Part shown: piece after piece, positions 1-27,348 of the stretch | Numbering within the stretch: the first letter of the stretch is position 1 | Layout: the number at the start of each line of letters is the position of its first letter | Source: Pirellula staleyi DSM 6068 | GTDB taxonomy: Bacteria; Planctomycetota; Planctomycetia; Pirellulales; Pirellulaceae | Assembly (NCBI GenBank): GCA_000025185.1 | Contig: CP001848.1 | Coordinates: forward strand, 3,480,001-3,512,000 | Length of the DNA stretch: 32,000 bases | Direction of reading: 5' to 3' | Made by a program: the position numbers and the translations under genes | The notes under the pieces: generated by a model | Database searches by the model: none | The model's input: the letters and a program-made list of their open reading frames with translations, nothing else | Told to the model about the DNA's origin: nothing

Positions 1-521
1 GGATCACTAAGAACTTTGTTGACGATTTGAGTGCGAGTCGGGCGAAGGCGGCGCACTTCTTCGAGCGACAGGTTCATTACGCTCGAGGTAATCTTGGCTG
101 CCGTTTCATCGTCGTAACGATCAGCAGTATTCATCGACTGCGAAGCATCGCGTGCTAGGATGAGCGTGGGTCGGACTTCGCGATTCTGCAGGTAAACCAG
201 CGATGGGCCAAGGAAGATCACGACGAGCAGCAGCACGACACCGCAGCGCATGCCAGCGAGGAGAAGCTTGACCCAAGCGGGGCACGTGTCGAGCTCGCGA
301 CGATAAAGATTCACAACGCCGTAGAGCATGGCCGCAACTGCGGCAATCAGAACGAACACTCCCCAACTCGTTGGCAAGTTGGTGAGCAGGAACTCTACCT
401 TCGCACCTTCGGGAACTTGCGAAGCGTCGTAACCAAACCAACTGACGATGGTGTCGGTGAACGATGCTGCTAGTGGCAACAGATTCATCTTCGATCCGCC
501 AATCGCGCTAGGGGTGGTCAT
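1..521 (-). CDS. Membrane-anchored vWA (BatB/BatD-like) protein, N-terminal part only; the gene continues past the left edge
   Basis: This minus-strand frame is absent from the ORF track because it has no stop inside the window. My translation from ATG 521 (alternative ATG 488) reads MTTPSAIGGSKMNLLPLAASFTDTIVSWFGYDAS..WGVFVLIAAVAAMLYGVV..LLLAGMRCGVVLLLVVIFLGP, giving two hydrophobic helices. It continues TLILARDASQSMNTAD, a DxSxS MIDAS start. An in-frame TAA lies just upstream of 521. I checked every codion of this frame from 3 to 332 and saw no stop. Confidence 0.6.
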   Translation of the reverse strand, partial: MTTPSAIGGSKMNLLPLAASFTDTIVSWFGYDASQVPEGAKVEFLLTNLPTSWGVFVLIAAVAAMLYGVVNLYRRELDTCPAWVKLLLAGMRCGVVLLLVVIFLGPSLVYLQNREVRPTLILARDASQSMNTADRYDDETAAKITSSVMNLSLEEVRRLRPTRTQIVNKVLSD

Positions 522-626
522 CAGGAAGTCGAGCGAAGAAGCGATCACGAGAGAATCTCTCACGCTAGTTTAAGTTCTTAAGGAATGGATCGGGGTGCAG
601 GACAGGTCGGACAAAATCAGGCGAGG

Positions 627-2462
627 CTAAAATCTCCACGCGCGGCTGAGAGCAGGCATGTCGATCTTTCGGAGTTCTTTACCCGCAGCATCTATCTCGG
701 TCACGCCGGTGGAATCGACCACAACCGTGGTGCCAGTCGCCAAGCGTTGCGCTGAATACGGATTCTTAAACTTTCCCTGCTGCCAAACCACTTTTCCATC
801 GCGGCTGTATTCGCGAATCTCTTGCAGGTTCAGAGAGCAAACTAAGGTGTTGCCATTTTCGAGACGTTGTACGGAAAAAGGCATCCCGACGCCGCCGATT
901 TCCCACACTGTTTTGCCGGAGGCATCGATTTCAATCACCTTCTGCACGTTCTGCAGCGCCACGAGTGTGCGACCATCTTCTAGTCGCCGCGCATCCACAG
1001 GACGCCCTTCGAGAGCCGCTTTCCAAACGATTTTCTTCGCCGGATCGATCTCGAGGACTTGCGAGCCTTCTGTGCAGGCAATCAGTGTGTTGCCATTCTC
1101 GAGTCGTTCGACACTTGTGGGACCTCCGGGAAGGCCATCGTAGCGCCAAACTTCTTTACCTGTGTCGTCGTACTCCACTAGCGAACGCTCGTTGAAGCTG
1201 CCGATCAGGCGATGTCCATTGGGAAGCCCTTGGCAGGCCCAGGGCTGAACACCGGTCGCACGCTCCCAAAGTTTCTTGCCAGTCACATCGAATTCGATCA
1301 CTTTGTTCTGGCCGTGATTGGTCACCAAGATGCGACCAAGATCGATCGGAACATTATCGAGGGGATGTTTGAGGAGCGCGGTGGAGGAACTCTTTTCGAG
1401 CCATTCATTCCACTTCTCGAGTGGCGCCGAGCGTTCTTCTTTCGGAGCATAGACGGTAAATCCAAACGCCTCGCCAGTGTAGCTACGAAGGGTTCGAAAG
1501 GCTTCGAGTCGCACCGCGACATCATCGGCATCGAGCAGCTTGACAAGCGTTGGGAGCGATTCGCGGCGATTGTTTACTGCTAAGATGCGAGCTGATGTGG
1601 CCCGCACAATCGGAGCATCGTCGCTGAGGAGCTTGAGTGAAAGTTCGACCGAGCGAGCGGTGTCGAGTTCGGCAATGGCACCGAGCACGGCAATGCGGTG
1701 CTGAGGATCGGCCTCGCTGAGTCCTTCGACAAGCATTGGCAAATCTTTGGTGGTTGCCGTGGCGATCAGAGCGCGGCGCAGTGCAATCCGCAGATGCTCT
1801 TCGTCGCAAAGAGGTAGCGATTTTAGCAGCGAAGAGGCGAGCCCTGGCAGGTTCTCTTCGCGAATGATCGTGAGGGCCGCAAACAAAAGCGAACGACCTT
1901 CTGCCTGGGTTTGATCGAGAATGCGTTTCGAGCGCCAGCGGATTTCCGGATCGTCACTCTTGGTGGCACTGACGAGCACATCGTGCAGGCCGGCTGGTTG
2001 CCGCATGAGCAGCTTCATGGCCGTCTCGCGTGCTGCGAAACTCTCGCTCCCGAGTTCCCGTATATGCTGCTCGAGTTCAGTGCGTCGCTCGGGGCTCGGC
2101 TGCATCGCATCAAAATACTTGATGAGCGATTCGCTCGTTGGCTGAAGGTCGTAACGCGCAAGCACTGCAATCTGGGGCGAAACTCCGGGCTCAGCAGTGG
2201 TCGCCTCAGCTGTTTTGTCACCAGCAGCGTCGCGAACTTTTTCGACATCCACCTTGGCCCGGGCAGCAGCAGCTTCTTTGATCGCTTCCTTAACGATTGC
2301 CTTCTTAAGTTCGATCTCTACAGCGCCCTCTTGTGCAACGGCTATCGAGCCAAGACCAACCAGCACCAAAACCAGGGAACACCGTGCGCACGAGTACACC
2401 GAGCGTAGCAACCGACTGGTTGTACGCGAGGTGATCGACGCTGCGATGGACACGTGGTTCAT
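627..2462 (-). CDS. Exported HEAT-repeat protein with a C-terminal 6-bladed beta-propeller (paralog of the C-terminal module of the upstream gene)
   Basis: This is ORF 627..2657 trimmed to ATG 2462, because the longer form overlaps the stop of the upstream gene at 2492. The N-terminus MNHVSIAASITSRTTSRLLRSVYSCARCSLVLVLVGLGSIAVAQE looks like a signal peptide. HEAT-like repeats are present (LLSDDAPIVRATSARILA, LLDADDVAVRLEAFRTL). Six blades of about 40 aa follow, each ending RLENGNTL-like. Confidence 0.8.
   Translation of the reverse strand: MNHVSIAASITSRTTSRLLRSVYSCARCSLVLVLVGLGSIAVAQEGAVEIELKKAIVKEAIKEAAAARAKVDVEKVRDAAGDKTAEATTAEPGVSPQIAVLARYDLQPTSESLIKYFDAMQPSPERRTELEQHIRELGSESFAARETAMKLLMRQPAGLHDVLVSATKSDDPEIRWRSKRILDQTQAEGRSLLFAALTIIREENLPGLASSLLKSLPLCDEEHLRIALRRALIATATTKDLPMLVEGLSEADPQHRIAVLGAIAELDTARSVELSLKLLSDDAPIVRATSARILAVNNRRESLPTLVKLLDADDVAVRLEAFRTLRSYTGEAFGFTVYAPKEERSAPLEKWNEWLEKSSSTALLKHPLDNVPIDLGRILVTNHGQNKVIEFDVTGKKLWERATGVQPWACQGLPNGHRLIGSFNERSLVEYDDTGKEVWRYDGLPGGPTSVERLENGNTLIACTEGSQVLEIDPAKKIVWKAALEGRPVDARRLEDGRTLVALQNVQKVIEIDASGKTVWEIGGVGMPFSVQRLENGNTLVCSLNLQEIREYSRDGKVVWQQGKFKNPYSAQRLATGTTVVVDSTGVTEIDAAGKELRKIDMPALSRAWRF
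630..1337 (-). repeat. Six tandem blade repeats of about 40 aa (about 120 nt) encoding a beta-propeller
   Basis: The blades, delimited by eye, are GRILVTNHG..QGLPN, GHRLIGSF..ERLEN, GNTLIACT..RRLED, GRTLVALQ..QRLEN, GNTLVCSL..QRLAT and GTTVVVDS..AWRF. Each carries a conserved (V/I)xE(I/Y/F)D..GK.VW core. Confidence 0.7.
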
Positions 2463-2491
2463 AGTGCTGAAAAGGAACTGAGTGCCTACAA

Positions 2492-5400
2492 TTAGTACTG
2501 CGATACGCCGGTAATATTGCCCATCCGTTGTTGCCATTTCACCTGCGTGCCGGTGGGGTCGACTTCCGAAACGCCGTTGTTGTCGGCAATCAAAGTGTTT
2601 CCATTCGGCAGACGCTGGGCACAGAATGGATTGACGAGCGGAACCTTCGCAGTCCACACCGTTTTCTGACCACTGGGATCAACTTCCACCACTTGTCCGG
2701 TGTACATCTGGCAGACGATGGTGTTTCCGTTTTCCAGTCGTTCGACATGGCACGGTCCATTCATATTGCGAGCTTCCCAAACAGTCTTGCCGGTGGAGTC
2801 GACTTCCACGACGCGACCTCCTTGCTGCAATGCCACCAGTGTGTTGCCATTGGAAAGTCGTCGGGCAGACATCGGACGACCTTGTACGGTGATGGTGGTT
2901 TGGGTTCCGTCGGGAGCAATCTCGATGATCTGTTGCACGTCGGCACATGCCACCAAAGTCCCGCCATTTTCAAGTCGCTGGCAGCTGTACACAGGACCAG
3001 GAAGACGGTCTTTCTTCCAAACTTCTTTGCCTTCTTCGTCGTACTCCACAACGGTGTTCTGAGCGAAGAGAGTGACGAGCCGATGTCCGTTGGGAAGACC
3101 CTGACAGCTCCATGGATTCGGGACTTGTTTACGCCAACGCTCTTTGTGGTCGGCATCGAGTTCGATGATCAAACCTTGTGCCTGTGAGACCAGCAGCGTG
3201 CGCCCGAGAGGCATGTCTACATCAGGAAGGGGTAGCTTCAGCTCAGCGGTGGCACCGGTGGTCGAGATCCACTCTTTCCAGGCCGCTACTGCTTTTTCAC
3301 GTTCTTCGGGTTTGGCTTCCGCTATGAATGGAAGGGTTTGGCCGGTCGCGGCGCGAAGCGATTGATAGCTGCGTGTCCGAACCTTGCTACTGAGCGCGTC
3401 GAGCAACTCGCCCAGCTTCGTGAGCGCGGCTCGATCGCCGAGATTCATCAAAGCACGAGCTGCTGCCAGCTGCACATTTTCATCGGTATCGCCAAGTAGC
3501 TTAGGGAGCGACTGCTTGGCTTCGTCGGGGGCGAGCTTGGCGAGGATGCCAGCTGCCATGATCGGACCAGCCGCTTCTTTCGCTTCGAGTGCAACGCGAA
3601 TGGCTGGCAAATCGTCGGCTGTTGGCGGAAGTGCAGTGAGAGTTTGAGCGGCTGCTGTAATCAGGTGTTCTTGATCGAGGATCGGGGCCAGCTTGAGGAT
3701 ACGCTCGGTTTGTCCCACGAGCTTCTTTTGTCGCACGACAAACAGCGTGTTCACCAGCAAGCTGCCACGCTTCATCGCCATCTCTTTGCTAATCGTGGGA
3801 CGTTCTGTCGGAGCGACAAACATCTCGTTCATCAGGTCGATCGTCACATCGGGGTTCTGCTGCGACAACTTCAGTTCAGCGATTGCCGCAAAGAGACGTG
3901 CGGCAGCCTCATCGGGTGTCGACTTGGCGAGCACCAGTTGGTAGCCACCACGCAAGTCGGCCAGCGTGCGATCGAGATCTTTTTGCTTGCTGTATAGCCG
4001 CATTCGATTGAATTGTGCGTCGGCATCCCCTGCTTTGATTTGTTCCGCCAGCATGTTCAAGCGGTGGTCGAGATTGGTCATCGCATAGACCCGGCCACCT
4101 CCGGTAACCCAGAACTTTTCGCCGTCGCTGTAGAGATTTCCAACCGGATCGTCGGTAGTGAGCGAAACTCCAACTTGCGTTTGCTTCGTCCCTTTCTCAA
4201 GGTCAAGCTTGACGATCGAATCATTCACCGGCATGTAAATCGCATCGCTCGTGAGTGTGCCACGTCCGAGTGAATCTTCGAGTTCGGTGACCCAAACAAG
4301 GCGTCCGCTGGGAATGTCGTAGCGGCGAACCACGTTCTTGCCAGCCACGAACAAGCCACGTCCCGAGACTCCTAAAACATAGGTGGCAGGGACTTCCCAC
4401 TTCACGCGCGGCGATTCCCAAATGATCTGCCCACTACGGCGATCGAGCGCAACGATTTTGTCGCTGTCGCTCGAAAGGACGACGAGCGTTCGTCCCGATG
4501 GGATCACCACATCCTCGGTCCACCCCTCGAAACTCATCATGGCGCCATACTGCGTTCCGTACATTTGCCGCATTCGATCATCGGGCTTACCGTCTCGTTC
4601 ATAGCGCACAGCCCAGCGGATGTTTCCACCTACGGCATCGATGGCAAACACCACACCGTTACCGCACGTCAGGTAAGCATCGCGACCGTCGACCGCCATG
4701 ATGGTTGGCGACCAGGGGGCGGCACCACCTTGAGGTTCATCGCACAGGTAGGTCTTCCAGCGTGTGCTTCCATCGGATTTGGCCATCGCATAAAGCCAGA
4801 TCGTTCCACCATCGGTGACAGGAGCGAGTAGCAGTTCACCGGAGCCAACCGGGGCAGCGAGAAATCCGACATCTTGCGAGCCTTCTTTGTCTTCATCGCT
4901 CGCACCGCGATGCCACTTCACTTTTCCGCTATCGGCTTCATAAGCTGCCAAAAAATTTGTGCGGGTACGGCGGGGCGTTACTCCCCACTGGAATCCGCGC
5001 TGCTGACGAGCGACGCGCGGAGGCGTTTCATCTCGCCCGAGACGTTTGCCTTCAATCGAGTAGATCATGTCGTCGACCAGCGACATCGATTGATGAATCC
5101 GATCGCCAAACAGCATCACCTCCGCAGCGGACTTGGGACGCTGCGACGCTTGCGTTTGAATCCCCATGTTCATCTGCATCATCATCAGCATCTGGCTCAT
5201 GCCATCGAGCTCAAACTGATTGAGCCAAACGCTGCGCCACACAGGCTGCGAGTTGAGTGCCGAGGTGTGGAAACAAATCAGCTCATCGGCCAATTTGATG
5301 TAGACCTTGTTGTCGCGGAACAGAAGTTGGCCCGTGGGGAGCCAGCCATTCTGACGCCACTGCGAAACGAGTTGTTCACGCGAGAAGACTTGAGGCTGTG

Positions 5401-6436
5401 CGTTGGGATCGCGAACAGCGGAGCGGCGAACCATGATTCCCGGAGCGACCATGCCACCCCAAGGATTCATGACATTCGAATCCGAAGCAGAGAGCTCGAC
5501 CTCTTGTACCCATAGTTCGGTGAGGGTCCGCTCCGACGCTGCTGAGGGCAAAGGGCGCATCGCGCCACTGCGACTGCTGCTTCCGAGAAGCATGGGCCAA
5601 TCGAGCGAAAATTCGCTAGAAAACGAGCTCGAAGTGGCGGCTAATTGCTCGGTCACTGCATCGAGAATCGAACGCTCCGGACGAGGGCCAGCCACGGAAG
5701 CAATGCTGCTGAGTGAGGTTTCAGCACCTTGCTTATCCCCCACGCGGCTGCTGGCCACAGCCAGTCGCAGCAGCACTTCGGCGCGAGGAACTGAGGGATC
5801 TGGATGCCGTTCGAGAATTTTGTTGAGCAGGCGACTTGCGCCGACGAAATCGTGTCGATCAAGCGCGAGGCAGGCGAGCCGAAACGCAGCATCGTCCCCG
5901 AGAGAACTTAGAAAATAGCGGTTTGCGACACGTGCAAGGGCATCTTCTTCGGTCTCGGGCGTCGCACGGCTTAGGATCGCTTGAGCTTCCCCGTCGGCCG
6001 TAATTCGGTAGGTCGAGAGGGCGAGTGGTGGAAGCGAAGCGAGAGTCAATTCGATCTCGTCGGCGAGCGAAGTATAGGTGCGGCCATCTCGCGTCATCAG
6101 CGTATCGCCAGCTTCGTCGAGCACTTTTTGCCACAGCACCACCGCCAGATCGAGGCGCCCATCGGCCACGCATTGATCCGCACGCTTCAGCAAACGCTGC
6201 TGTTCAGGATCCGTTTTCAGTGCTGCTCCGCCCGGAAATCGAGTTTCGCTGGGATCGGGAGCACTGTCATCTTCTGCCTTCGCGGGGCCTGCGACTGCAC
6301 GCTTGATGCCAAAGGCGCCCGGCAACGGAATCGGGGCCAGCTGCGCGGAAAGTGTCGACGTGAATAGAAACGAACCGACAAGAGCAAACACAACTGCGCG
6401 AGTGCTCGACCAGTAAGGAAGGATCGATTTGTTCAT
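2492..6436 (-). CDS. Large exported multidomain protein: TPR-like N-region, PQQ/BamB-like beta-propeller, helical region, HEAT repeats, second 6-bladed propeller
   Basis: This is ORF 2492..6571 trimmed to ATG 6436. A GGAG lies 8 nt upstream, and the longer form would overlap the batA-like gene that ends at 6474. The signal-like N-terminus is MNKSILPYWSSTRAVVFALVGSFLFTSTLSAQ. PQQ-like repeat signatures include GKVKWHRG, DGSTRWKTY, GGNIRWAVRY, SGQIIWESP and SGRLVWVTEL. A HEAT repeat reads LLGDTDENVQLAAARALMNLGD. The C-terminus has six RLENGNTL-type blades. Confidence 0.85.
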   Translation of the reverse strand: MNKSILPYWSSTRAVVFALVGSFLFTSTLSAQLAPIPLPGAFGIKRAVAGPAKAEDDSAPDPSETRFPGGAALKTDPEQQRLLKRADQCVADGRLDLAVVLWQKVLDEAGDTLMTRDGRTYTSLADEIELTLASLPPLALSTYRITADGEAQAILSRATPETEEDALARVANRYFLSSLGDDAAFRLACLALDRHDFVGASRLLNKILERHPDPSVPRAEVLLRLAVASSRVGDKQGAETSLSSIASVAGPRPERSILDAVTEQLAATSSSFSSEFSLDWPMLLGSSSRSGAMRPLPSAASERTLTELWVQEVELSASDSNVMNPWGGMVAPGIMVRRSAVRDPNAQPQVFSREQLVSQWRQNGWLPTGQLLFRDNKVYIKLADELICFHTSALNSQPVWRSVWLNQFELDGMSQMLMMMQMNMGIQTQASQRPKSAAEVMLFGDRIHQSMSLVDDMIYSIEGKRLGRDETPPRVARQQRGFQWGVTPRRTRTNFLAAYEADSGKVKWHRGASDEDKEGSQDVGFLAAPVGSGELLLAPVTDGGTIWLYAMAKSDGSTRWKTYLCDEPQGGAAPWSPTIMAVDGRDAYLTCGNGVVFAIDAVGGNIRWAVRYERDGKPDDRMRQMYGTQYGAMMSFEGWTEDVVIPSGRTLVVLSSDSDKIVALDRRSGQIIWESPRVKWEVPATYVLGVSGRGLFVAGKNVVRRYDIPSGRLVWVTELEDSLGRGTLTSDAIYMPVNDSIVKLDLEKGTKQTQVGVSLTTDDPVGNLYSDGEKFWVTGGGRVYAMTNLDHRLNMLAEQIKAGDADAQFNRMRLYSKQKDLDRTLADLRGGYQLVLAKSTPDEAAARLFAAIAELKLSQQNPDVTIDLMNEMFVAPTERPTISKEMAMKRGSLLVNTLFVVRQKKLVGQTERILKLAPILDQEHLITAAAQTLTALPPTADDLPAIRVALEAKEAAGPIMAAGILAKLAPDEAKQSLPKLLGDTDENVQLAAARALMNLGDRAALTKLGELLDALSSKVRTRSYQSLRAATGQTLPFIAEAKPEEREKAVAAWKEWISTTGATAELKLPLPDVDMPLGRTLLVSQAQGLIIELDADHKERWRKQVPNPWSCQGLPNGHRLVTLFAQNTVVEYDEEGKEVWKKDRLPGPVYSCQRLENGGTLVACADVQQIIEIAPDGTQTTITVQGRPMSARRLSNGNTLVALQQGGRVVEVDSTGKTVWEARNMNGPCHVERLENGNTIVCQMYTGQVVEVDPSGQKTVWTAKVPLVNPFCAQRLPNGNTLIADNNGVSEVDPTGTQVKWQQRMGNITGVSQY
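2495..3205 (-). repeat. Six tandem blade repeats of about 40 aa, paralogous to 630..1337
   Basis: The blades are GRTLLVSQ..QGLPN, GHRLVTLF..QRLEN, GGTLVACA..RRLSN, GNTLVALQ..ERLEN, GNTIVCQM..QRLPN and GNTLIADN..VSQY. They match the blades of the downstream gene in the same order. Confidence 0.7.
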
Positions 6437-6473
6437 CGTCATGACTCCTTCGGGATGCGCCGGTGAGGGCATC

Positions 6474-8888
6474 TTAGCGACGTCGACCGAACCACCAACC
6501 AAGAAGTTGCTCGCCCGAGAGGATTGCAACCACTGCCCACAGCAAATACCACCAAACTTCCGATTGTGCACCGACTGAACCTAGCCCCGCTGCTTCCTCG
6601 GCATCGATTAGTTGCACGTTCGCGCCAGCCAATTGACGACGGAACGAATCGCGGTCGACTGCTTTGAGGTTCCCTTCGGTCGGATCGACATTCGCCGCGA
6701 AGAGCACGGGTTGCTCGGCACCATCGCGGCGTGTGAGCTTCATTTGATAGAACCCGGCGGTATTCACATCGGCATACTCGGCCAGCCAAACGGTGGCGCT
6801 CGAGTCCGCTGTCGGCGCTACATTCCCTTTTTGAAGCGAAACCGGCTCGGCTGGCACTGGCGTCGACTTCGGAGCCTCGGCTGGTTTACCTGGCGAAGGG
6901 GCACCATCTTCCGGTGGCTGGGCTTGCAAATTAGCTTCTCGATTCGCAGGCCCTTTGACCGAAACGTCGATTTCGAACTGCGCTAAATCGATCTTCTGAC
7001 GGAGCGGCTCACCCACACGCACGGAGGCCGATTCACCACTCGAGCCCGACATATACCGGACCAATTCTTGCATCGTCAGCAAGTAGCTTGGATCGCTGGT
7101 CCAGTTGGTCCAGTCGGCATCAGCAGGCATCGCCAGCACCATTGTTCGGCCCCGTCCCATCCCCTTTTCAGCAATGGCGGGAGACGAATCGGGATCGCTA
7201 AAGCGAGCAGGAATCGAAACGCTGCTGCCGAGTTGCTCTTTCTTCGGCGCCGAAGCCCACCATCGAAACACTTTCATGTTGTCGAGAAACGGATTGTTTT
7301 GCCCAGCGAAAATCGACAGGACAGGATGCTGCGGCTGTTCGACTCGCAGCGAAACCCAGGTGTTCTCGGTCTCGTCGCCGCGTACATTCTCGAGTCGCAG
7401 CGGCGAGAGCCCCGCCCCGTCGCGGTAGTAGTTGTCATTAAAAAACTGCTCGTCGATTTGATCACCAGGAAAAATCACGAGCCCACCACCCGCTTCGGTC
7501 CAGCGCTCAAGTCGCAAAAGATTTTCGAGCGTCTTATCGCCGAGCCGATACACGTTGCAGAGAAAAATCACCTCATATTTGTCGAGCTGTGCTGCTTCGA
7601 GTTCGTTTTCGGTAATCACATCGACAGCCACTCCACTCGGAACAGGTCCCAGAGGAGAGAGAGCCCTTTTGAGATAGAACGATTCGCTCCGCCCAAACGA
7701 CGCACTCGGATCGCCATCGACAATAAGTGCCGGAATGCCCCGCACCACACGGGCCGGAAAATAGGCCACGCTATCGCCTGCGAGCGAATCGCTTTCGGCA
7801 TCCATTTCGGGGGCGAGTTCGATTTTCACTTCGCGTGGTTCGAGATCGGCCTCCGCTCCGGTGGCACTCTCATCGGAGCTGAACGTGAAGGAAAATGTCG
7901 CCGCCGCTGACTGGCCTGCTGGAATTTTCTCGATGGTGTTCTCGAGGGGGAGTGCATCACCGGCGGTGAACTTCACACGCACATCGCGAACTTCAGTGGC
8001 CGAAGGATTCGAAACGAGCACATCAAAGCGAGAGGAAACTCCCGCAACCAAAGTTCCTTCAGGTCGAACTTCCGTCACGATCAGATTCCGATCGCCACTG
8101 TCGCCGGCGGTAATCACATACGAACCGTTGACGAGCTTGCTAACCCGCTCGAGAACTTTAATCGGTGTCTCTGCAGTGGTGTCGGATGCTTTCCAGTCGC
8201 GCTCGCGTAGGTCAGTAACGATGTAGAGCACACGGTTGATGTTCGACGGGGTTTCCGTGAGCGAATCTTCGAGTTCCTTGAGTGCCACATCGAGCGAGGC
8301 AGCACGATCGCTCGGCTCGAGCTTTTCGATCGTCGAGACCACGTCGTCGATCGTCTCGTCCGACAGGTGGGTGCTAGCCAGCAGTGGCTGATCGGGCTTC
8401 GAGGTGACGATCAGCGTGACGCTGTTGTCGCTATCGTCGTCGGCGAGCGAGCGAACCAGGTCGACCAGCCGCGTGCGAGCAATTTCCCACGACGACTCAT
8501 TTCCTTGCCGCGTTTTCATGCTCAGCGAATCGTCGAGCAGGATGATGCGCTCGAACTGATTCGCGTCGAGCAGTCCCGCTGTCAGTGCTGTTGGAAAGAA
8601 GGGACGGGCAAGCAGTGCACCCAGTAGCGCCACGGCCAAGCAGCGTAGCAAAAGAAGCAGAATATTTTCGATCCGGATGCGACGACGGTTTTTCTTGTCG
8701 GCGTCGAGCAAAAAGTCCATCGCAGCCCAGTCGACGATCTTGAACTTCCGCTTGTTCAGCAGATGGATCAGGATCGGAATCGCAATGGCCGCGAGCCCCG
8801 CGAGAAAAATCCCGGGGTTCACCATCCAGCCTTCGAACAGGGCAAACATTGGCCACGCCAGCGACGGGCTAGAGAGCAATTCAAGCAT
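6474..8888 (-). CDS. BatA_N (aerotolerance-regulator N-terminal) domain membrane protein with a vWA-like domain and a C-terminal TM anchor
   Basis: The N-terminus ..MVNPGIFLAGLAAIAIPILIHLLNKRKFK followed by ILLLLLRCLAVALLGALLA is the classic BatA_N pattern. ERIILLDDSLSM contains a DxSxS motif. The C-terminal helix is VWWYLLWAVVAILSGEQLLGWWFGRRR. The ATG at 8888 was verified in the sequence; alternative ATGs lie at 8849 and 8825. Confidence 0.85.
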   Translation of the reverse strand: MLELLSSPSLAWPMFALFEGWMVNPGIFLAGLAAIAIPILIHLLNKRKFKIVDWAAMDFLLDADKKNRRRIRIENILLLLLRCLAVALLGALLARPFFPTALTAGLLDANQFERIILLDDSLSMKTRQGNESSWEIARTRLVDLVRSLADDDSDNSVTLIVTSKPDQPLLASTHLSDETIDDVVSTIEKLEPSDRAASLDVALKELEDSLTETPSNINRVLYIVTDLRERDWKASDTTAETPIKVLERVSKLVNGSYVITAGDSGDRNLIVTEVRPEGTLVAGVSSRFDVLVSNPSATEVRDVRVKFTAGDALPLENTIEKIPAGQSAAATFSFTFSSDESATGAEADLEPREVKIELAPEMDAESDSLAGDSVAYFPARVVRGIPALIVDGDPSASFGRSESFYLKRALSPLGPVPSGVAVDVITENELEAAQLDKYEVIFLCNVYRLGDKTLENLLRLERWTEAGGGLVIFPGDQIDEQFFNDNYYRDGAGLSPLRLENVRGDETENTWVSLRVEQPQHPVLSIFAGQNNPFLDNMKVFRWWASAPKKEQLGSSVSIPARFSDPDSSPAIAEKGMGRGRTMVLAMPADADWTNWTSDPSYLLTMQELVRYMSGSSGESASVRVGEPLRQKIDLAQFEIDVSVKGPANREANLQAQPPEDGAPSPGKPAEAPKSTPVPAEPVSLQKGNVAPTADSSATVWLAEYADVNTAGFYQMKLTRRDGAEQPVLFAANVDPTEGNLKAVDRDSFRRQLAGANVQLIDAEEAAGLGSVGAQSEVWWYLLWAVVAILSGEQLLGWWFGRRR

Positions 8889-8996
8889 CGGGCCCGCCTT
8901 TCTGGGTGATAGCCAAAGGGTCGAAACGTTGCATAGCGAATATCTTGTGGTAGCTGATCGTCAGGGTGGGGAAACTCGGTAGGTCCAGCTGCGGTC

Positions 8997-9929
8997 TTAG
9001 CCTCGCTGAATTGCCGACCGTCGCATGCGCTGCCTAAATGTCAGGTAGCTTCCGAGTACGGCATCAAGCGGGTCTTTGGTGTTCATCAGGACGTAGTCGA
9101 CGCCGCTCGATGCACAGGTCTTCTTCACGTCGGCCAAAAAGTTGCCGACTGCTTCGAGATAACCCTTGCGAAGTGCGCGAGGCTCGGTGTGCAGCTGCAC
9201 ATCGGTCTCGAGTCCTCGGAAGAGGGTGTTGTCTTGAAACGGGAAGGTCAACTCGTCGTCGTGCATCACATGAAACACGACAACTTCGTGGCGACGAAGG
9301 CGAAATTGCTTCAAGGCTTCGTTGAGTGTGGCAAGATCGAGAAAAAGGTCGGAGACCAAAATCACCATGCCGCGACGACGGACTTGCTGCGCGAGTTGGG
9401 GAAATACCTGCGCAACATCCGACGTTTCATCGGGGGTGGTGTTCTCCAGTTCGTGAAGCATCAGTTTGAGATGATTCGGGTGCGAACTAGCAGGGAGATT
9501 TTTGGTGATGCGGTTGTTGAAGGTCACCAGACCGACCGCATCTTGCTGCTGCTGCATCAAGTACGCCAGACTCGCAGTGGCTGTCGCGGCATAGTCGAAT
9601 TTGGAAGGCCCCTCGCCATACTTCATGCTCTTACTGCAGTCGAGAATGAGTGTGCATTTGAGGTTGGTTTCTTCCTCATACTCTTTGATGTAGAGACGAT
9701 CGGTTTTCGACCAGACTTTCCAGTCGATATGACGCAGGTCGTCGCCGGGGGTGTATTCGCGGTGCGTGGCAAATTCCACGGCGAAACCGTTATAGGGACT
9801 CCGATGCTGACCGGTGATGAAGCCTTCCACCACCAGCCGGGCGCGCACATCGAGTCGCTTCACGCGATCGAGCGTTTTCCAGTCGAGATAGCGAGGCTGA
9901 TTCGTTGCCCCAGGGCTCGTGACAGACAT
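8997..9929 (-). CDS. DUF58 family protein (vWA-like, MoxR-associated)
   Basis: The DUF58 signature reads GQHRSPYNGFAVEFATHREYTPGDDLRHIDWKVWSKTDRLYIKEYEEETN. LILDCSKSM gives a DxSxS motif. The gene sits directly downstream of moxR. Confidence 0.9.
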   Translation of the reverse strand: MSVTSPGATNQPRYLDWKTLDRVKRLDVRARLVVEGFITGQHRSPYNGFAVEFATHREYTPGDDLRHIDWKVWSKTDRLYIKEYEEETNLKCTLILDCSKSMKYGEGPSKFDYAATATASLAYLMQQQQDAVGLVTFNNRITKNLPASSHPNHLKLMLHELENTTPDETSDVAQVFPQLAQQVRRRGMVILVSDLFLDLATLNEALKQFRLRRHEVVVFHVMHDDELTFPFQDNTLFRGLETDVQLHTEPRALRKGYLEAVGNFLADVKKTCASSGVDYVLMNTKDPLDAVLGSYLTFRQRMRRSAIQRG

Positions 9930-9993
9930 CGTTGCAGGTTCGACTTTCGATTCTGAAGTGAGAACTACGAGGCCTTACGATCGCGGGTATCGA

Positions 9994-11058
9994 TTAGCTG
10001 CCAAATGCGCGAGCCAGAGCGGGGGGAACTTCGTCGCCAGCGCTACGTTGTGGAATGTCGGTGAGCAAGCGATCGATCACCTTATCGCTGGTGATGCCAC
10101 TCGACTCGGCGTTGAAGTTGGTGATCACGCGGTGACGAAGCACCGGATGGGCCACGGCGCGAATATCGTCGGTGGTGACAAAGAATCGCCCTTCGAGCAT
10201 CGCCCGAGCCTTCCCTCCCAGCAGCAGATACTGCATACCGCGAGGACCGGCACCCCAGCTGACCCAGTCCTTCATGAAGGCGGGTGCCTCTTGCTCGTGC
10301 ACGCGTGTGGCGCGAACCAAGCGGAGTGCGTAGTGAATCACATGCGGGGCAACCGGCACGCGGCGCACCAGTTGTTGCAAACGAATGATATCTTCAGCCG
10401 ACAGCACTTCTGTGACCGTCACGCTGCTAGGGGACGTGGTCGATTCCGCAATGCGATACTCTTCGTCGTAGCTGGGGTACTTCACGAAGACTTTGAACAT
10501 GAAGCGGTCTTGCTGGGCTTCAGGGAGAGGATAAGTACCCTCTTGTTCAATCGGGTTTTGCGTCGCGAGCACAAAGAACGGCGAGGGGAGCGTATGTCGC
10601 TGACCACCGATCGTCACCTGTCGCTCTTGCATCGCTTCGAGCATCGCGGCTTGCGTCTTGGGCGGCGTACGATTGATTTCGTCGGCCAGCACGATGTTCG
10701 AGAAGACCGGACCGGTGAGAAACTTAAACGCTCGTTCGCCGGTCGAGCGATTCTCTTGAATCACTTCGGTGCCGGTGATGTCGCTCGGCATCAAGTCGGG
10801 GGTGAATTGAATGCGGCTGAAGAGGAGCTTCAGCGACTTGGCCAGCGTGCTGACCATCAACGTCTTCGCCAGACCTGGCACACCTTCGAGCAAGCAGTGC
10901 CCTTGGGCAAAAATGGCGACGAGCAGCTGCTCGATCACAAGTTCCTGACCGACGATCACTTTGCCGAGTTCGGCCCGCACTGAAGCGTACGCCTTCTTCA
11001 GGTTCTCGAGCGCCTGCAAATCGTCAGCCGATGGTGCCTGATGAGTCTCTTGCGACAT
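9994..11058 (-). CDS. MoxR-family AAA+ ATPase
   Basis: Walker A is GVPGLAKT, Walker B is [24 protein letters not shown], and the [22 protein letters not shown] motif is present. The length of 354 aa is typical for the family. Confidence 0.95.
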
Positions 11059-11536
11059 GTTGCCAAATCCTGATGTCTCGAAGCGAGAAGTGTTGATGGA
11101 TGGAAGGTTGGTCGATTCGCGTTCAGCAGCGTCAGTTGCCGTGGTTCACACCTAAGACGAATTGGCCGGAGGAATCGTTTTGGACTCGATCACCGGGCAA
11201 TGGTCTCTGGCAGCAAACAGGGCAAACGATCCGCACGCGCCTCCGATTTTGAAGGTTGGAGCAGTGTTTGCCACGGAGTTTGCCGTTGTGGTGAGTGACT
11301 TTGGCGAGGGGAAAGGTTCAAGCAGTTTCGTGCGTGCTAGGCTGAATTCCCCAGCCCGTGGGGGAGAGGCGATTTCTATTCTAAATTCTGGCCAGCCAGA
11401 TACCAGCGAAATGCTTGCTCCAAGGGGAAACTTCGTCGACAATTCTTGACAGCCGAAGTGGTTGTCGCGATTCGAGTTCTGAAAATGCTCGCCTTGCCGA
11501 CAACAGCCCTAAGTCTCCTTCTCTGCGCGTGGCACT

Positions 11537-12628
11537 ATGCTCGACCCAGCCTTCGCAAATTTGGTGAAGGAAACGACGTCGCACCGACGTCCAGCGGTGT
11601 CGTGGCTGCTCGCCTGCGGATTGCATGGCTGCGTCGCCTTGGGAGGTGCATGGATGTTTGCCAGCAGCGACCTGCCGATGGCCCCTCCGGTGGCTGTTCG
11701 CGAGGCGGGAATCGTCATCGTGACGGCGCATGCGACCCCCCAGTACTTTGCCGAAAACCATTCTAACCGCTCGGCGGACACAACTGGTCAATCTGCTGGC
11801 CAGTCGCCAGATTTTGCGGCATCGCCCGAGGTTAATCCATTACCAATCTCCGCTGAGTTGCCCCAAATCGCTCGCCGTTTGCCGCAGCAGACCGAAGGCC
11901 CACCGTCCGTCGAGGGGACTGAACAAGAGGGGAAGCCAAGCGTGTCGTCGCTCGCCAGTTTTTCGCGCGAGACGAAGTCGCCCGGGGGCCGGCCGCTGCG
12001 CGAGATTCCGTCGATCGATGTTGCGGCTGTTATGGCCGACGAGCTGCGCCGCAATCCGCCAGCCGCCAAGCCGATTGGCGAGGTCGCCAGCTTTTCGATG
12101 TTTGGAGCAACAGCCCGTGGGCGCTCGTTTGTGCTGGTGATCGATCGCTCGCAAAGCATGGGGGGCGAGGGGCTGGGGGCGATCGCTGCCGCGATGCAAG
12201 AGCTTCAAGTGCAACTCGCTGCTCTCACGCCGCAGCAACGTGTGCAAGTGGTGGCGTATAACGATTCCGCAGCGCTCTATGGCGATGGACGACTCGTGCC
12301 GGTCACACCAGCCGAGCAAGAGAAGCTGGTTCGCTTTGTCGGTGGCATTGTGGCCAGTGGCGCCACGGAGCATCGGACCGGCATTCTAGCCGCACTAAGG
12401 CTCGCGCCCGAAGTCGTGTTTTTGCTGACCGATGGAGGTGACCCGCCGCTGTCGAATCACGATTTGCGAACACTGGTCGAAGCCGCCGCTGGTCGGACGC
12501 AGATTATCGTGCTCGAGTTCGGCCGTGGTAAGCTGTCCGAAGAGAATTCGCAGGACGAAAAACTGAAGAAGCTCGCTCAAGCGACTGGCGGCATGTACCG
12601 CTATGTCGATCTGCTCGACGAGCGCTGA
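11537..12628 (+). CDS. Membrane-anchored vWA domain protein, divergent from moxR
   Basis: ATG 11537 was verified. The N-terminal hydrophobic helix is VSWLLACGLHGCVALGGAWMFA. The MIDAS set comprises VLVIDRSQSMGG, SGATEH and FLLTDGGD. A Pro/Ser-rich linker separates the TM helix from the vWA domain. Confidence 0.8.
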   Translation: MLDPAFANLVKETTSHRRPAVSWLLACGLHGCVALGGAWMFASSDLPMAPPVAVREAGIVIVTAHATPQYFAENHSNRSADTTGQSAGQSPDFAASPEVNPLPISAELPQIARRLPQQTEGPPSVEGTEQEGKPSVSSLASFSRETKSPGGRPLREIPSIDVAAVMADELRRNPPAAKPIGEVASFSMFGATARGRSFVLVIDRSQSMGGEGLGAIAAAMQELQVQLAALTPQQRVQVVAYNDSAALYGDGRLVPVTPAEQEKLVRFVGGIVASGATEHRTGILAALRLAPEVVFLLTDGGDPPLSNHDLRTLVEAAAGRTQIIVLEFGRGKLSEENSQDEKLKKLAQATGGMYRYVDLLDER

Positions 12629-12661: not shown

Positions 12662-13741
12662 TCACGCGAAGTGGGCTGTGAGCGACGCAAGTGCTTGGAC
12701 AGCAAACGCTGTGGCGATCAGGGGGTCGTCTTCGCGCATCCGACTACTGGCATTCGCCCAGCTCCCATCGCGCCGCACTTCTTTTTTCAGCTCTGCCAAG
12801 ATTCCTTTGGCAAAGGTTGCGCGGTTGTTGGGGGTGAAATGGACAAGCAGCGGCGCGAGAGAAGCGTAGTAATAGTAACGCAGGCCGCGCTGCCAATCGA
12901 CTTCCTGAGGGAGCGTTTCAAAACCGGGTACAATCTCGAGATTCAGCTGCTTTTGAAGCCAAACGATAGCCGCGTCACTTTTCCACTCGTGATCAGATTT
13001 TGCTGCGGCCAGTACGAGAACGCCATCGCATGTGGCCGATCCGTAGGGGCGCGCTTCGAGCTGCTTGCTATCGACATAACCGGCTTTGTTGCTGAGCGAC
13101 ATCGGCTCGGTAGTAAATGCAAAGCCTTCCTTGGTGCGGCAGCGATGGACGTAGTCAGTGCCACGCTCGATCGACAGCTCGCGCTCGTTTGTTTCCGGCA
13201 GAGTGAGCAGCGCACGGATCACTAGCGACGTGACGGAAATGCTTGTGCCGGTGGTGATCCCCTGGGCATCTGCGCGTGAGAGAAAATCCCAGCCTCCGTA
13301 CTGCGGATGATCACTCGCAAAACCTCGACCTTCAGTCAGCTGCGATTCGACCAGGAATTTCGCGAGCAGCTCCTCGGTTTTGTCGTTGCGAAAATCGCCC
13401 CCCAGAGCTTGGATTGCGAGTAGCCAATGAGCAGCCGCATAGGTGGGAAAATCGAGTGTTCCATCAGGCGCAGCAGGGGCTTGTTTTTTGGCAAGGCCAG
13501 CCGACAAGAAGGCCTGCCCGCGCAGAAGTTCTGGAGTGAACTTTGCGCGCTGAGCGGCTGGAAGTTTTGCCAGTGTGTAGAGTATCAAGGCCGTGATCGC
13601 GGCCCCATCTTTTAGCTGGCCATAGTGATGCGAATGCCAACCCCCATCGCGTCCGATTTGCAGACGCAAGTACTTCGCGCCACGAACTAACTGCTCGAGC
13701 GATTCCTGCTGAAGTCCCTCGGTCGATGACAAGTCTTGCAT
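12662..13741 (-). CDS. Prenyltransferase/squalene-oxidase (QW) repeat protein, no signal peptide
   Basis: This is ORF 12662..13813 (TTG at 13813) trimmed to ATG 13741, which lies 5 nt after the upstream stop at 13747. QW-like motifs include RGAKYLRLQIGRDGGWHS, HPQYGGWDF and EVRRDGSWAN. Confidence 0.8.
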   Translation of the reverse strand: MQDLSSTEGLQQESLEQLVRGAKYLRLQIGRDGGWHSHHYGQLKDGAAITALILYTLAKLPAAQRAKFTPELLRGQAFLSAGLAKKQAPAAPDGTLDFPTYAAAHWLLAIQALGGDFRNDKTEELLAKFLVESQLTEGRGFASDHPQYGGWDFLSRADAQGITTGTSISVTSLVIRALLTLPETNERELSIERGTDYVHRCRTKEGFAFTTEPMSLSNKAGYVDSKQLEARPYGSATCDGVLVLAAAKSDHEWKSDAAIVWLQKQLNLEIVPGFETLPQEVDWQRGLRYYYYASLAPLLVHFTPNNRATFAKGILAELKKEVRRDGSWANASSRMREDDPLIATAFAVQALASLTAHFA

Positions 13742-13746
13742 CGACG

Positions 13747-14874
13747 TTATGCCTGCGAGATAGGCAGGTAGCGATTGGGAGCGCTCAGCACCAGGATCGC
13801 TGCAGCCGTGCAAAACGTGCGGCTGGTGATGCAGTGATGGCCGGTCCAGCTGCCGTCGCTATTTTGCACGCCGACAATCCTGTCGCGAACGGTGGGGAAC
13901 CATTTGCTCCAACCTTCGCCACCTTCCTGCAGCATCGTTTCGGTGATGAGATGGAACGCGAGATATTCTTCGCCACCTGCTTGCGAGAAAGCGGTGTTGT
14001 CTTTGTTGACGAGCTGCAGCACATCGGCGAAGGCCTTCTTAGCTGCTGGTTCGTTTTCCATACCCAGAGCATACAGAACACGAACACCGGTCGCATTTTT
14101 GTAGAGCGTGTGCATCCAGCTTCCCTGATTGGGATTGGTCGCCGCGCTCATTTGCTGCAGCAAGTGCTTGGCGGTGAGGTCGGGTGAGCCACCCACTTTC
14201 AGCCCTGAATAATGAGCCGCTCGCAAAGCCACCCAGCCCATCACGGTACCTAAGGTCGGAGCCCAACTCTGATTGCCCCAATGTCCCTCGGCGGTTTGCG
14301 AGCCCACGATTGCTGCGACCACACGTCGCAAGGCATCGCGTACCGGATCGGTGTCCCAACCTTCGCCAATCGCTTCGGCCAGATAAAGTGCCGCAAAGAA
14401 GCTGTGGGCATGTCGGCCAATTTTGTTTTGCAGCTGCGTCCCTTGCATCGAAGTGATGTCGTCGGCTGGCATCACTTCCGTTGCTTGGATCAGGTACGAA
14501 ACGATCCGCTGCACTTCGCGACTCCGTGGCCCCTCCACCGGCGTGTTGCCTGTGGCCATGAGCGCAAGTCCCACCATCGAGGAGCAACCAATGTCGGTCG
14601 GCTGACCAATATCGACTCCGCAACCACCGTCGCGGTGCATCGTCTTCATCAGCCACTCGACCCCTCGGCGAATCGACACTTCGCTCTGCGGCGTGAACTC
14701 TTCGAACGTGGCGGCTGCCGTCGCAGGAGCTGTCGACGCAGGGGCTGTTTTCTTTTCGTCACCTTCGGCGGCCCAAACGCGGGCTCGGTATCCGGCCAAT
14801 CCTGCCGCAGCAAGCGTTGCCGCTGAAATGCCCGAAGTCGTTAGCCAGTCGCGACGTGTGAACCGCTTACTCAT
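13747..14874 (-). CDS. Tat-signal prenyltransferase/squalene-oxidase (QW) repeat protein
   Basis: ATG 14874 is preceded by GGGGAG with a 10-nt spacer. MSKRFTRRDWLTTSGISAATLAAAGLAGYRARVWA is a twin-arginine signal (TRRDWL). Exact QxxxGxW motifs are SQTAEGHWG and VQNSDGSWTG, and HRDGGCG is also present. Confidence 0.8.
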   Translation of the reverse strand: MSKRFTRRDWLTTSGISAATLAAAGLAGYRARVWAAEGDEKKTAPASTAPATAAATFEEFTPQSEVSIRRGVEWLMKTMHRDGGCGVDIGQPTDIGCSSMVGLALMATGNTPVEGPRSREVQRIVSYLIQATEVMPADDITSMQGTQLQNKIGRHAHSFFAALYLAEAIGEGWDTDPVRDALRRVVAAIVGSQTAEGHWGNQSWAPTLGTVMGWVALRAAHYSGLKVGGSPDLTAKHLLQQMSAATNPNQGSWMHTLYKNATGVRVLYALGMENEPAAKKAFADVLQLVNKDNTAFSQAGGEEYLAFHLITETMLQEGGEGWSKWFPTVRDRIVGVQNSDGSWTGHHCITSRTFCTAAAILVLSAPNRYLPISQA

Positions 14875-15130
14875 CGAAAAGATCTCCCCGGTGGGCCCGC
14901 TCTGCGATGGTCGCCAGAAGCTACATTCGCAGAAAGGACGCAGGCCTCGATTATCGAGTCCTGCGCGAGCCGCGTCAAACATTCGTTACGAGCGCGGAGC
15001 GATTTTGGCTCCGGGTGAAACTACGATAAACCTTGACCCTTAGTGCACTTTGCCCTGGTCCAGGTTTTCAGAAACTCCTAAAATTTAAGTCTGGTTCGCC
15101 TTTTCTCTGCTAGCGTTCAAAAGCGGTCTC

Positions 15131-21549: not shown

Positions 21550-21870
21550 CTAGCGCCAGTCGATCCAGATTCCGCCGGGTCCCCAGTGAACGTCGCTGAG
21601 AACCGCCTCGAGACAATCCCACAAAATCTCTCTCCAGGCCGGTTTGCGAAACTTTGGCATCGGGTTGCGGGTTAGTTTGAAGTGGAGAAGTTCGGCTCGC
21701 GATGGTCGAGCGTGACAAATGCGCAATTCTCGGCGGGAAATTTCCGGGAGCCATTGATTTTTTAGTTGCCGAATCGATCTACTAATTACTTCGATTTCGA
21801 GCAGAAAGTATTTGACTACTTCACCGTAGGGGCGTTGGTTCGATGCGTTCGATGTTTCGCAATTCGGCAC
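21550..21870 (-). CDS. Doubtful small ORF (106 aa, Trp-rich C-terminus) in an A/T-richer gap
   Basis: This rests only on an open frame. I recognise no motif in it. Its codons (AGT, AGA, CTA, AAA, AAT, ATT, TGT) are atypical for the window. Its 5' end overlaps the kinase start by 28 nt. Confidence 0.2.
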   Translation of the reverse strand: MPNCETSNASNQRPYGEVVKYFLLEIEVISRSIRQLKNQWLPEISRRELRICHARPSRAELLHFKLTRNPMPKFRKPAWREILWDCLEAVLSDVHWGPGGIWIDWR

Positions 21871-27288: not shown

Positions 27289-27348
27289 GCGATGATGGGC
27301 TGCGATGTGTGCCGTCTAAGGAAGGGAAAACGTTTCGCGAGCAAAATT

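Follow-up and report, generated by a model that had tools for sequence, protein, structure and literature searches.

What does a MoxR ATPase act on when the genes of its von Willebrand factor A (vWA) partners enclose a gene for a very large exported propeller protein? The question is raised by the first 12,628 nucleotides (nt) of a 32,000-nt stretch of the Pirellula staleyi DSM 6068 genome (contig CP001848.1, positions 3,480,001 to 3,512,000), which was analysed as a whole and is referred to below as the window. The answer favoured here, on balance and with moderate confidence, is that these genes belong to a conserved envelope operon of the Pirellulales, built on a classical MoxR-DUF58-BatA cassette of the MRP subfamily, and that its exported scaffold and vWA proteins form a MoxR-driven complex facing the periplasm. 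The locus is a lineage-specific, well-conserved variant of a known, functionally obscure operon type. No description of the Pirellulales arrangement was found in the literature searched, the coverage of which was incomplete. The genes and the divergent intergenic region are the following (lengths in amino acids, aa).

9994-11058, minus strand: moxR, 354 aa
8997-9929, minus strand: DUF58 gene, 310 aa
6474-8888, minus strand: BatA_N/vWA gene, 804 aa
2492-6436, minus strand: tetratricopeptide repeat (TPR)/propeller/HEAT gene, 1314 aa counted from the MNKSIL start; the open reading frame (ORF) measures 1359 aa from stop to stop
627-2462, minus strand: HEAT/propeller gene, 611 aa
1..521, minus strand: N-terminal 173 aa of a second membrane vWA gene, truncated at the window edge
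11059..11536: divergent intergenic region between moxR and the divergent vWA gene, 478 nt
11537-12628, plus strand: divergent vWA gene, 363 aa

The cassette and its conservation

The initial annotation had described six co-oriented genes with a divergent vWA gene starting at 11537. The divergent gene is present in the ORF list, and the coordinates are exact, as are the five intergenic gaps of 64 nt (9930-9993), 108 nt (8889-8996), 37 nt (6437-6473), 29 nt (2463-2491) and 105 nt (522-626). The number six has to be revised upwards, as the cluster runs on past position 1. In the near-identical metagenome-assembled genome GCA_002483025.1 (locus L001 of the scan described below), it continues with the remainder of the 871-aa vWA gene and a gene for a 780-aa membrane protein, followed by dnaG and rpoD. 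The 1314-aa protein is unchanged in that genome, and the flanking genes differ by a few amino-acid substitutions (e.g., FLFSTMNHVS against FLFRTMNHVS); P. staleyi DSM 6068 and GCA_002483025.1 are the same or a very close strain. The gene caller favours a start that would lengthen the 611-aa protein to 636 aa and make its gene overlap the one upstream.

No terminator-like or promoter-like site was found in the five gaps by a sigma-70, E. coli-style scan that is uncalibrated for planctomycetes, and because of this style the result counts as weak evidence. The same scan gave no sigma-70-like match within 11059..11536, a region that from its position is likely to hold a shared promoter; the gene caller placed there an 89-aa ORF, which has no Pfam match. 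Scans for tRNA genes and Rfam families across the 32,000 nt returned neither.

From its profile scores and motifs, MoxR is assigned to the classical AAA_3/MRP type of AAA+ ATPases. The Pfam AAA_3 match reaches 215.6 bits (2.2e-64) over the full 131-position profile and is accompanied by AAA_lid_2, and the bpMoxR family is also matched at 42.3 bits (threshold 27). The Walker A sequence GVPGLAKT is kept in 54 of 56 orthologues and the Walker B DE in all 56. The adjacent gene, which adjoins moxR in 52 of the 52 complete upstream flanks, encodes a protein with a Pfam DUF58 match of 163.8 bits (4.4e-48) and a VWA_2 match (9.2e-10). Among its orthologues, the DxSxS motif of the metal ion-dependent adhesion site (MIDAS) is present in 60/62, the T/S residue in 60/62 and the final D in 62/62. 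Neither MoxR nor the DUF58 protein has a hydrophobic or transmembrane segment in hydropathy analysis, so both are taken to be cytoplasmic. With an intact AAA_3 MoxR, an adjacent DUF58 gene and a BatA_N hairpin vWA protein, the operon can be placed among the MRP cassettes. The earlier description of an expanded Bat-like operon (Bat, Bacteroides aerotolerance) thus holds: MoxR, DUF58, BatA_N/vWA and a second membrane vWA protein are found, and the MoxR is of the classical MRP type. The four DxSxS motifs listed earlier are likewise all confirmed in the translations (DCSKS in the DUF58 protein, DDSLS in the 804-aa BatA protein, DASQS in the second membrane vWA protein and DRSQS in the divergent one), and each of the four vWA families keeps the MIDAS residues D-x-S-x-S, T/S and D.

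The conservation of the locus was assessed by scanning a set of genomes, in which each GTDB species is represented once, with a 1314-aa family profile. The scan returned 79 loci, almost all of them labelled Pirellulaceae, Anatilimnocola, Pirellula, Mariniblastus or unclassified Planctomycetota. Synteny was read by tblastn with each operon protein on these loci, and the counts are limited to loci with enough flank; the homologue lists hold the best 120 matches. The co-occurrence of the propeller gene with moxR, DUF58 and batA, whose absence would have refuted the initial interpretation, is clearly borne out in related genomes. MoxR, DUF58 and BatA genes lie directly upstream of the TPR/propeller gene at 52 of 55 loci, the 871-aa-type vWA gene follows downstream at 60 of 63, and the 780-aa-type gene is downstream at 47 of 50. 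The divergent vWA gene is found upstream at 33 of 48 loci. As the order is fixed in at least 72 other species-level genomes, the cluster is more than a chance grouping, and because identity drops to ~35% for the propeller, BatA and vWA proteins (it stays at ~75% for MoxR), this order must have been maintained over a long divergence. The locus is vertically conserved next to dnaG-rpoD.

An exhaustive HMMER search collected 373 clusters (50% identity) of the TPR/propeller family at E <= 1e-30, and the members fall into length classes of about 800-900, 1300-1400 and 1500-1900 aa. Co-occurrence with the MoxR cluster reaches distant relatives of ~31-38% identity and other lengths. The locus of a 1917-aa member (38% identity) reads MoxR-DUF58-BatA-[propeller]-vWA-737 aa, and a 1578-aa member (33% identity) stands directly after a DUF58 gene, beside a second complete operon. 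The latter locus (L085, 1-17615, from a metagenome-assembled genome) holds two tandem systems. The first consists of a cut gene, DUF58 and the 1578-aa TPR/PQQ protein, with no BatA gene between the last two; the second, which is complete, consists of an SQHop-like gene, MoxR, DUF58, BatA, a 1128-aa PQQ_2 protein and a vWA gene. Four loci lacking MoxR (L026, L030, L038 and L049) were judged to be distant paralogues, with 28-37% identity.

Of the 70 operon-linked loci, 38 have a short TPR/propeller gene of about 800-900 aa and 32 have one with a fused HEAT/propeller extension, and a free-standing HEAT/propeller gene comes after the fused-type gene in 16 of 28 loci. The constant operon member is therefore the N-terminal ~800 aa of the 1314-aa protein, and the HEAT/propeller module is an optional, semi-autonomous, lineage-specific add-on. 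The proposal that about 1900 aa of scaffold replace the usual TPR components of such operons stands for these ~800 constant residues; it does not extend to the HEAT/propeller module, which is absent from more than half of the operons and has paralogues outside MoxR clusters.

Exported scaffolds and membrane vWA proteins

The 1314-aa protein consists of a signal peptide, a TPR-like solenoid, an eight-bladed BamB-like propeller, a helical/HEAT solenoid and a second, 3no2-like propeller. Its main parts map as follows.

5636..6208, minus strand: TPR-like helical repeats, residues ~77-267, ten paired helices
4073..5524, minus strand: BamB-like propeller, residues ~305-788
2492..4072, minus strand: accessory C-terminal module, a HEAT solenoid (~789-1075) and a second propeller (~1076-1314) with RLxNGNTL blades

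Both large proteins had been described as carrying signal peptides, and hydropathy agrees, with one N-terminal hydrophobic segment in each. In the 1314-aa protein, this segment spans residues 15-33, is signal-peptide-like and ends in LSA|Q, and in the 611-aa protein it spans residues 25-43 and ends in AVA|Q. Pfam matches in the former comprise PQQ_2 (4.4e-27, 95.7 bits), HEAT_2 (2.1e-09, at 995-1073) and propeller families at 1146-1343, and 168 full-length homologues were collected. About the first 60 residues vary in the family; the rest is conserved, with a mean column identity of 44-52%, and there is no globular variable domain.

The AlphaFold model of residues 41-860 has a predicted local distance difference test score (pLDDT) of 86.7 and a predicted template modelling score (pTM) of 0.87, and also shows the start of the helical solenoid. 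The TPR component named in the initial annotation appears in it as ten paired helices, at a pLDDT of ~90 over residues 37-227 of the fragment. This region has many invariant residues and a weak YbgF-TPR match, and no Pfam TPR match to the 1314-aa protein is significant. In Foldseek searches with the N-terminal module, BamB was the best match (E 1e-15, template modelling score on target 0.69-0.76), followed by tetrathionate hydrolase, with methanol dehydrogenase at rank 45 (0.43 on target). The number of eight blades is derived from these structural matches and from ~36 strands, not from a direct blade count. A nearly invariant C-D-E-P motif (C565, D566, E567 and P568) and many invariant acidic residues characterize the propeller of the family. 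The modelled folds suggest two protein-binding scaffolds, and no enzyme, in the constant TPR-like and BamB-like part.

In the accessory C-terminal module, sequence matches to the PDB were obtained with alphaRep HEAT proteins for the HEAT region and with 3no2 for the propeller. Residues 892-1300 align with the 611-aa protein at 40% identity (411 residues, E 6e-91), which points to the module and the 611-aa protein being paralogues. The latter matches Pfam HEAT_2, HEAT, PQQ_2 and Mala_s_1-like families and has 249 homologues, some of them outside MoxR operons. A 778-aa protein labelled 'eukprot' is 41% identical to it and most likely represents planctomycete contamination of a eukaryotic assembly.

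The 804-aa protein, which is 100% identical to a database entry for P. staleyi DSM 6068, is recognized as a BatA protein by Pfam (PF07584, 1.6e-17, 64.1 bits), together with VWA_2, and by the TIGR02226 two_anch model (70.6 bits). Its AlphaFold model (pLDDT 82.7, pTM 0.72) comprises two N-terminal transmembrane helices, the vWA domain (111-260; MIDAS residues DDSLS, T and D226), a CARDB-like sandwich, an alpha/beta domain (374-615), an Ig-like sandwich and a C-terminal transmembrane helix. Foldseek against the PDB returned STM3548 (2gk3), the GH42 trimerisation domain, the ThuA-like 4jqs, CARDB (3idu) and vWA domains. The alpha/beta domain is GATase1/ThuA-like according to model and Foldseek, and homologues carry precomputed CARDB, ThuA and GH42M matches. 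No propeller was seen in the model or among the Foldseek matches to the PDB.

The sequence that links the two BatA_N helices (NKRKFK...KKNRRRIR) is highly basic, which should place this loop in the cytoplasm and the vWA domain in the periplasm. Residues 42-74 of this loop (listed at 6666-6765, minus strand) form the densest invariant run of the protein across 59 orthologues, with H42, L43, R47, W54-M57, F59, L60, A63, R68-R70 and E74 invariant, and have an AlphaFold pLDDT <50. Such invariance combined with low model confidence is typical of partner-dependent folding, and it is probably on the BatA_N loop that MoxR and DUF58 dock from the cytoplasmic side.

The second membrane vWA protein, 871 aa in the gene call and 862 aa when counted from the Met at 521, is a paralogue of the 804-aa inner-membrane protein. 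It has two N-terminal transmembrane helices, a periplasmic vWA domain (DASQS), beta-sandwich/MG2-like and alpha/beta regions and a C-terminal transmembrane helix, with Pfam matches to VWA (2e-05) and MG2 (1.7e-04). Despite the two N-terminal helices and the vWA domain, BatA_N gave no match in it.

The divergent 363-aa protein matches VWA_3 (9.5e-10), VWA_2 and VWA, has one N-terminal transmembrane anchor, and carries the MIDAS residues DRSQS, T and D, which are conserved in 22/22 orthologues. The database start of this gene (324 aa; L001 3809-4783) omits the transmembrane helix encoded in 11537-11653 ('PAWLLS..H'-type). The 363-aa start is considered better, since orthologues keep the helix upstream of the database start, and the 324-aa call is judged from these alignments to be a likely start-codon mis-annotation. 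At the sequence level, Pfam found no propeller-family match in either the 871-aa or the 363-aa protein. The vWA domains of the 804-, 871- and 363-aa proteins are all predicted to face the periplasm, as indicated by the positive-inside rule and by a mapped homologue, the BatA-like BB0173 of Borrelia. This is an inner-membrane protein whose periplasmic vWA domain was mapped experimentally (PMC5700661).

In the 780-aa protein (L001 18611-20953), three transmembrane helices are accompanied by a region rich in beta structure, a long helical region of coiled-coil-like character and a tail rich in Pro and Ala. The P. staleyi copy has no Pfam or NCBIfam match, and a DUF4175 match was obtained in one of 28 scanned orthologues (E 1.8e-07), for which reason the link with DUF4175 is tentative.

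Proposed function and competing explanations

Cassettes of MRP-type MoxR, DUF58 and BatA are found across many bacterial phyla. To our knowledge, a biochemical output is known only for the methanol-dehydrogenase version. In that system, the periplasmic methanol dehydrogenase, an eight-bladed propeller, does not have its Ca2+ inserted unless MxaR, S, A, C, K and L are all present, and a MoxR/VWA complex of these proteins has been proposed (PMC12276312). MoxR proteins of the MRP subfamily have been linked to methanol dehydrogenase activation, membrane integrity in Rhizobium and stress tolerance (PMC3893208).

The mechanism proposed for the Pirellulales operon is modelled on this MxaR/S/A/C/K/L cassette and is inferred by analogy. 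The 804-, 871- and 363-aa vWA proteins and the 780-aa protein would form an inner-membrane platform and, with the exported scaffold or scaffolds, one periplasm-facing complex. The MIDAS sites of the platform might bind the TPR/BamB-like scaffold, or the clients it holds, through a metal-bridged acidic residue. On the cytoplasmic side, the MoxR hexamer and the DUF58 protein would dock on the basic BatA_N loop, and the use of ATP by MoxR could assemble, remodel or reset the complex across the membrane. The scaffold would be extended, optionally, by the HEAT/propeller module, a gain of the Pirellula/Anatilimnocola lineage. The physiological output is probably the assembly or maintenance of envelope proteins, not defence.

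The classical MRP operons, such as the Rhizobium RL3499 cluster and those of Francisella and Borrelia (BB0170-0176), as summarised from Snider & Houry 2006 in PMC3893208, share with the present operon an AAA_3 MoxR followed by DUF58, a BatA_N double-helix vWA protein, a second membrane vWA protein, a closing membrane protein and periplasm-facing MIDAS sites. The Pirellulales operon differs from them in having an exported TPR/BamB-like propeller gene between the vWA genes in essentially every case, the HEAT/propeller extension and its free copy in many lineages, a third, divergent periplasmic vWA gene, and large membrane vWA proteins (about 800-870 aa) with CARDB, GATase1-like and Ig-like domains. 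The Bat operon of Bacteroides fragilis contains batA-E with moxR and DUF58 upstream (Tang et al. 1999 as described in PMC3557215). A large membrane-associated complex of Bat proteins, held together by vWA and TPR interactions, has been proposed, and no specific function was demonstrated in Leptospira (PMC3557215). MoxR, DUF58, BatA_N/vWA, a second membrane vWA protein and a TPR element are common to the Bat operon and the locus in P. staleyi, which is an aerobe. The BatD family gave no match in any operon protein or in the 28 orthologues of the 780-aa protein. As for BatC and BatE, no stand-alone TPR or SH3 protein occurs in the operon, and a TPR-like part is present only in the 1314-aa protein.

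Two further systems resemble parts of the operon. Archaeal arCOG01314 clusters combine MoxR with secreted vWA/Ig proteins and membrane-anchored flavodoxin-like (GldG/GH42-trimerisation-like) proteins, and a role in secretion or surface assembly has been predicted for them (Makarova et al. 2015, PMC5898192). As in the present operon, MoxR is accompanied there by membrane-anchored extracytoplasmic vWA, Ig-like and GH42-trimerisation-like domains, the last being represented here by the GH42 and STM3548 matches of the 804-aa model. The clusters are archaeal, however, their domains lie on separate proteins and are not fused, and no propeller or TPR component has been described in them.

The second resemblance is to the Bam components. 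The core propeller is structurally nearest to BamB, and the preceding TPR-like solenoid belongs to the fold class of BamD. In contrast, identity with BamB is ~15%, the TIGR03300 score is 45 bits against a cut-off of 285.2, the propeller has large insertions, the signal peptide lacks a lipobox cysteine, and the gene lies in a MoxR operon and not beside bam genes. A speculative and distinctly unlikely idea is that the constant protein, resembling BamD and BamB in one chain and connected to three periplasmic MIDAS proteins and a cytoplasmic AAA+ motor, lies at the heart of a trans-envelope assembly machine of the Pirellulales that is coupled to ATP and has so far escaped recognition. If true, the task of this machine might be the insertion or upkeep of proteins of the outer membrane or cell surface, in the unusual envelope of planctomycetes, and the widespread but enigmatic Bat/MRP MoxR cassette would gain its first defined periplasmic partner outside methylotrophy.

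The main rival to the favoured complex, within the frame of a MoxR cassette, is that the propeller protein is a client. The cassette would then load a metal or cofactor into an exported eight-bladed propeller, either a periplasmic enzyme or a metal-dependent binding protein. This is a minority possibility, suggested by the parallel with MxaRSACKL. Both sets of genes combine MoxR, a DUF58-type vWA protein and two further vWA proteins, genetically tied to an exported eight-bladed propeller protein, and in nearly all Pirellulales operons the propeller gene stands between two vWA genes. The C-D-E-P motif and the invariant acidic residues keep the option open, some homologues carry precomputed PF01011 (PQQ enzyme) matches, and one of the top structural matches, tetrathionate hydrolase, is an enzyme. 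However, PF01011 remains below threshold here (17 bits against a cut-off of 26.7), and the non-enzymatic BamB, not methanol dehydrogenase, is the best structural match. The propeller differs from that of the Mxa system in its TPR/HEAT fusions, which are typical of scaffolds, and its gene is embedded in the cassette. Neither pqq genes nor a cytochrome partner nor MxaA, MxaK, MxaJ or MxaI families were detected within the window. Another explanation reduces the propeller and HEAT genes to syntenic passengers, that is, separate periplasmic proteins encoded in a standard MoxR-DUF58-BatA-vWA-DUF4175-like operon. It is unlikely, and part of its support also weighs against the favoured complex. HEAT/propeller relatives (~40% identity) occur elsewhere, either alone (L082) or beside a PSCyt2/PSD1 gene (L083), and at L030 (9656-15535) and L084 (4316-11665) a 1314-like gene is followed by one or two HEAT/propeller genes with no MoxR, DUF58 or BatA nearby, so that such parts can work independently. 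The L030 cluster adjoins an ABC-2 permease/GldG-like protein and a DUF4340 protein; GldG-like proteins have a GATase1-like extracytoplasmic domain, the fold class seen in the 804-aa protein. The HEAT/propeller module is also missing from many operons, as described above. The favoured complex alone is limited further by the vWA topology, which is founded on the positive-inside rule and one homologue and not on a dedicated predictor, and by the sigma-70 and terminator scans, which lack planctomycete calibration. MoxR and DUF58 lie on the opposite side of the membrane from the propeller proteins, and any coupling must therefore pass through the transmembrane proteins; we know of no Bat/MRP system in which such coupling has been demonstrated. 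Relevant to both explanations, the genes of the Leptospira bat cluster appear to have independent internal promoters (PMC3557215). Against the passenger explanation, the TPR/BamB-like gene holds its exact slot between the vWA genes at ~35% identity and across three length classes, a family member directly follows a second DUF58 gene in L085, the 37- and 29-nt gaps are without terminator-like sites in the E. coli-style scan, and the relatives away from MoxR are the most divergent.

The initial annotation had also pointed to a resemblance with nucleoside triphosphate (NTP)-dependent conflict systems, and a MoxR-vWA-beta-propeller ternary conflict (immunity) system in the sense of Kaur, Burroughs, Iyer and Aravind (2020) was weighed accordingly. 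Such systems have been reported in planctomycetes, and their third component typically joins a membrane segment, TPRs and a beta-propeller and acts near the membrane. The class is defined by a vWA domain fused to a propeller of ~four blades, and its MoxR belongs to the bpMoxR clade, often with a GxxxTAKS P-loop (PMC7159879). The present locus is similar in uniting MoxR, vWA proteins and a membrane-proximal TPR and propeller protein in one cluster, and MoxR exceeds the bpMoxR threshold. The 1314-aa protein has a TPR-like region, a propeller and an N-terminal hydrophobic segment, and its family varies over about the first 60 residues only. The defining fusion is nevertheless absent, both from the 804-aa model and from the Pfam results for the other vWA proteins. 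The AAA_3 score is five-fold above that of bpMoxR, and the P-loop is the canonical GVPGLAKT. Family searches among the operon proteins found no bpX, VMAP, EAD or effector domains, and PADLOC returned weak HEAT-ARM repeat matches only. The N-terminal part of the propeller protein is conserved and not hypervariable once the signal peptide is passed, with no clear sign of a variable effector region. Finally, the operon is inherited vertically in fixed order, in contrast to the sporadic distribution of the ternary systems. The resemblance is therefore not supported, and a role in conflict is highly improbable. MoxR, vWA and propeller genes in one cluster are not by themselves a sign of an NTP-dependent conflict system, a point that guards against mis-filing such loci.

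The favoured reading, a MoxR-driven complex facing the periplasm, gives the cassette a dedicated exported partner in the same slot of almost every Pirellulales genome. The Pirellulales are thus well suited for finding out which partners the periplasmic MIDAS domains bind and by what route a cytoplasmic AAA+ ATPase is coupled to events in the periplasm. As P. staleyi DSM 6068 is cultured and has a complete genome, the proposed interactions could be tested there.

Neighbouring genes in the window

Two genes on the same strand lie upstream of the operon, at 12662-13813 and 13747-14982 (both minus strand). One of them has a Tat-like (twin-arginine translocation) signal (RRDWL) and weak SCO2321-family and squalene-cyclase-repeat matches. 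Relatives occur directly upstream of moxR in six other loci (L007, L028, L039, L081, L085 and L086), and in L063 a relative separates the propeller gene from the second vWA gene within the operon, which brings the total to 7 of ~50 loci. This could represent an additional accessory component.

Large proteins are also encoded in a second cluster, at 23276-31131 (minus strand). Its genes specify a PQQ_2 propeller protein of 1260 aa (27349-31131), a protein of 792 aa with a weak SBP_bac_5 match (24910-27288) and one of 544 aa without a match (23276-24910). The 1260-aa protein was considered as a paralogue of the 1314-aa protein and rejected, the best BLASTP E value being 0.016. Two signalling genes are also found near the operon on the plus strand, namely a HAMP/HisKA/HATPase_c sensor kinase at 15131-17041, which is adjacent in L001 too, and a Ser/Thr protein kinase at 21843-23279.

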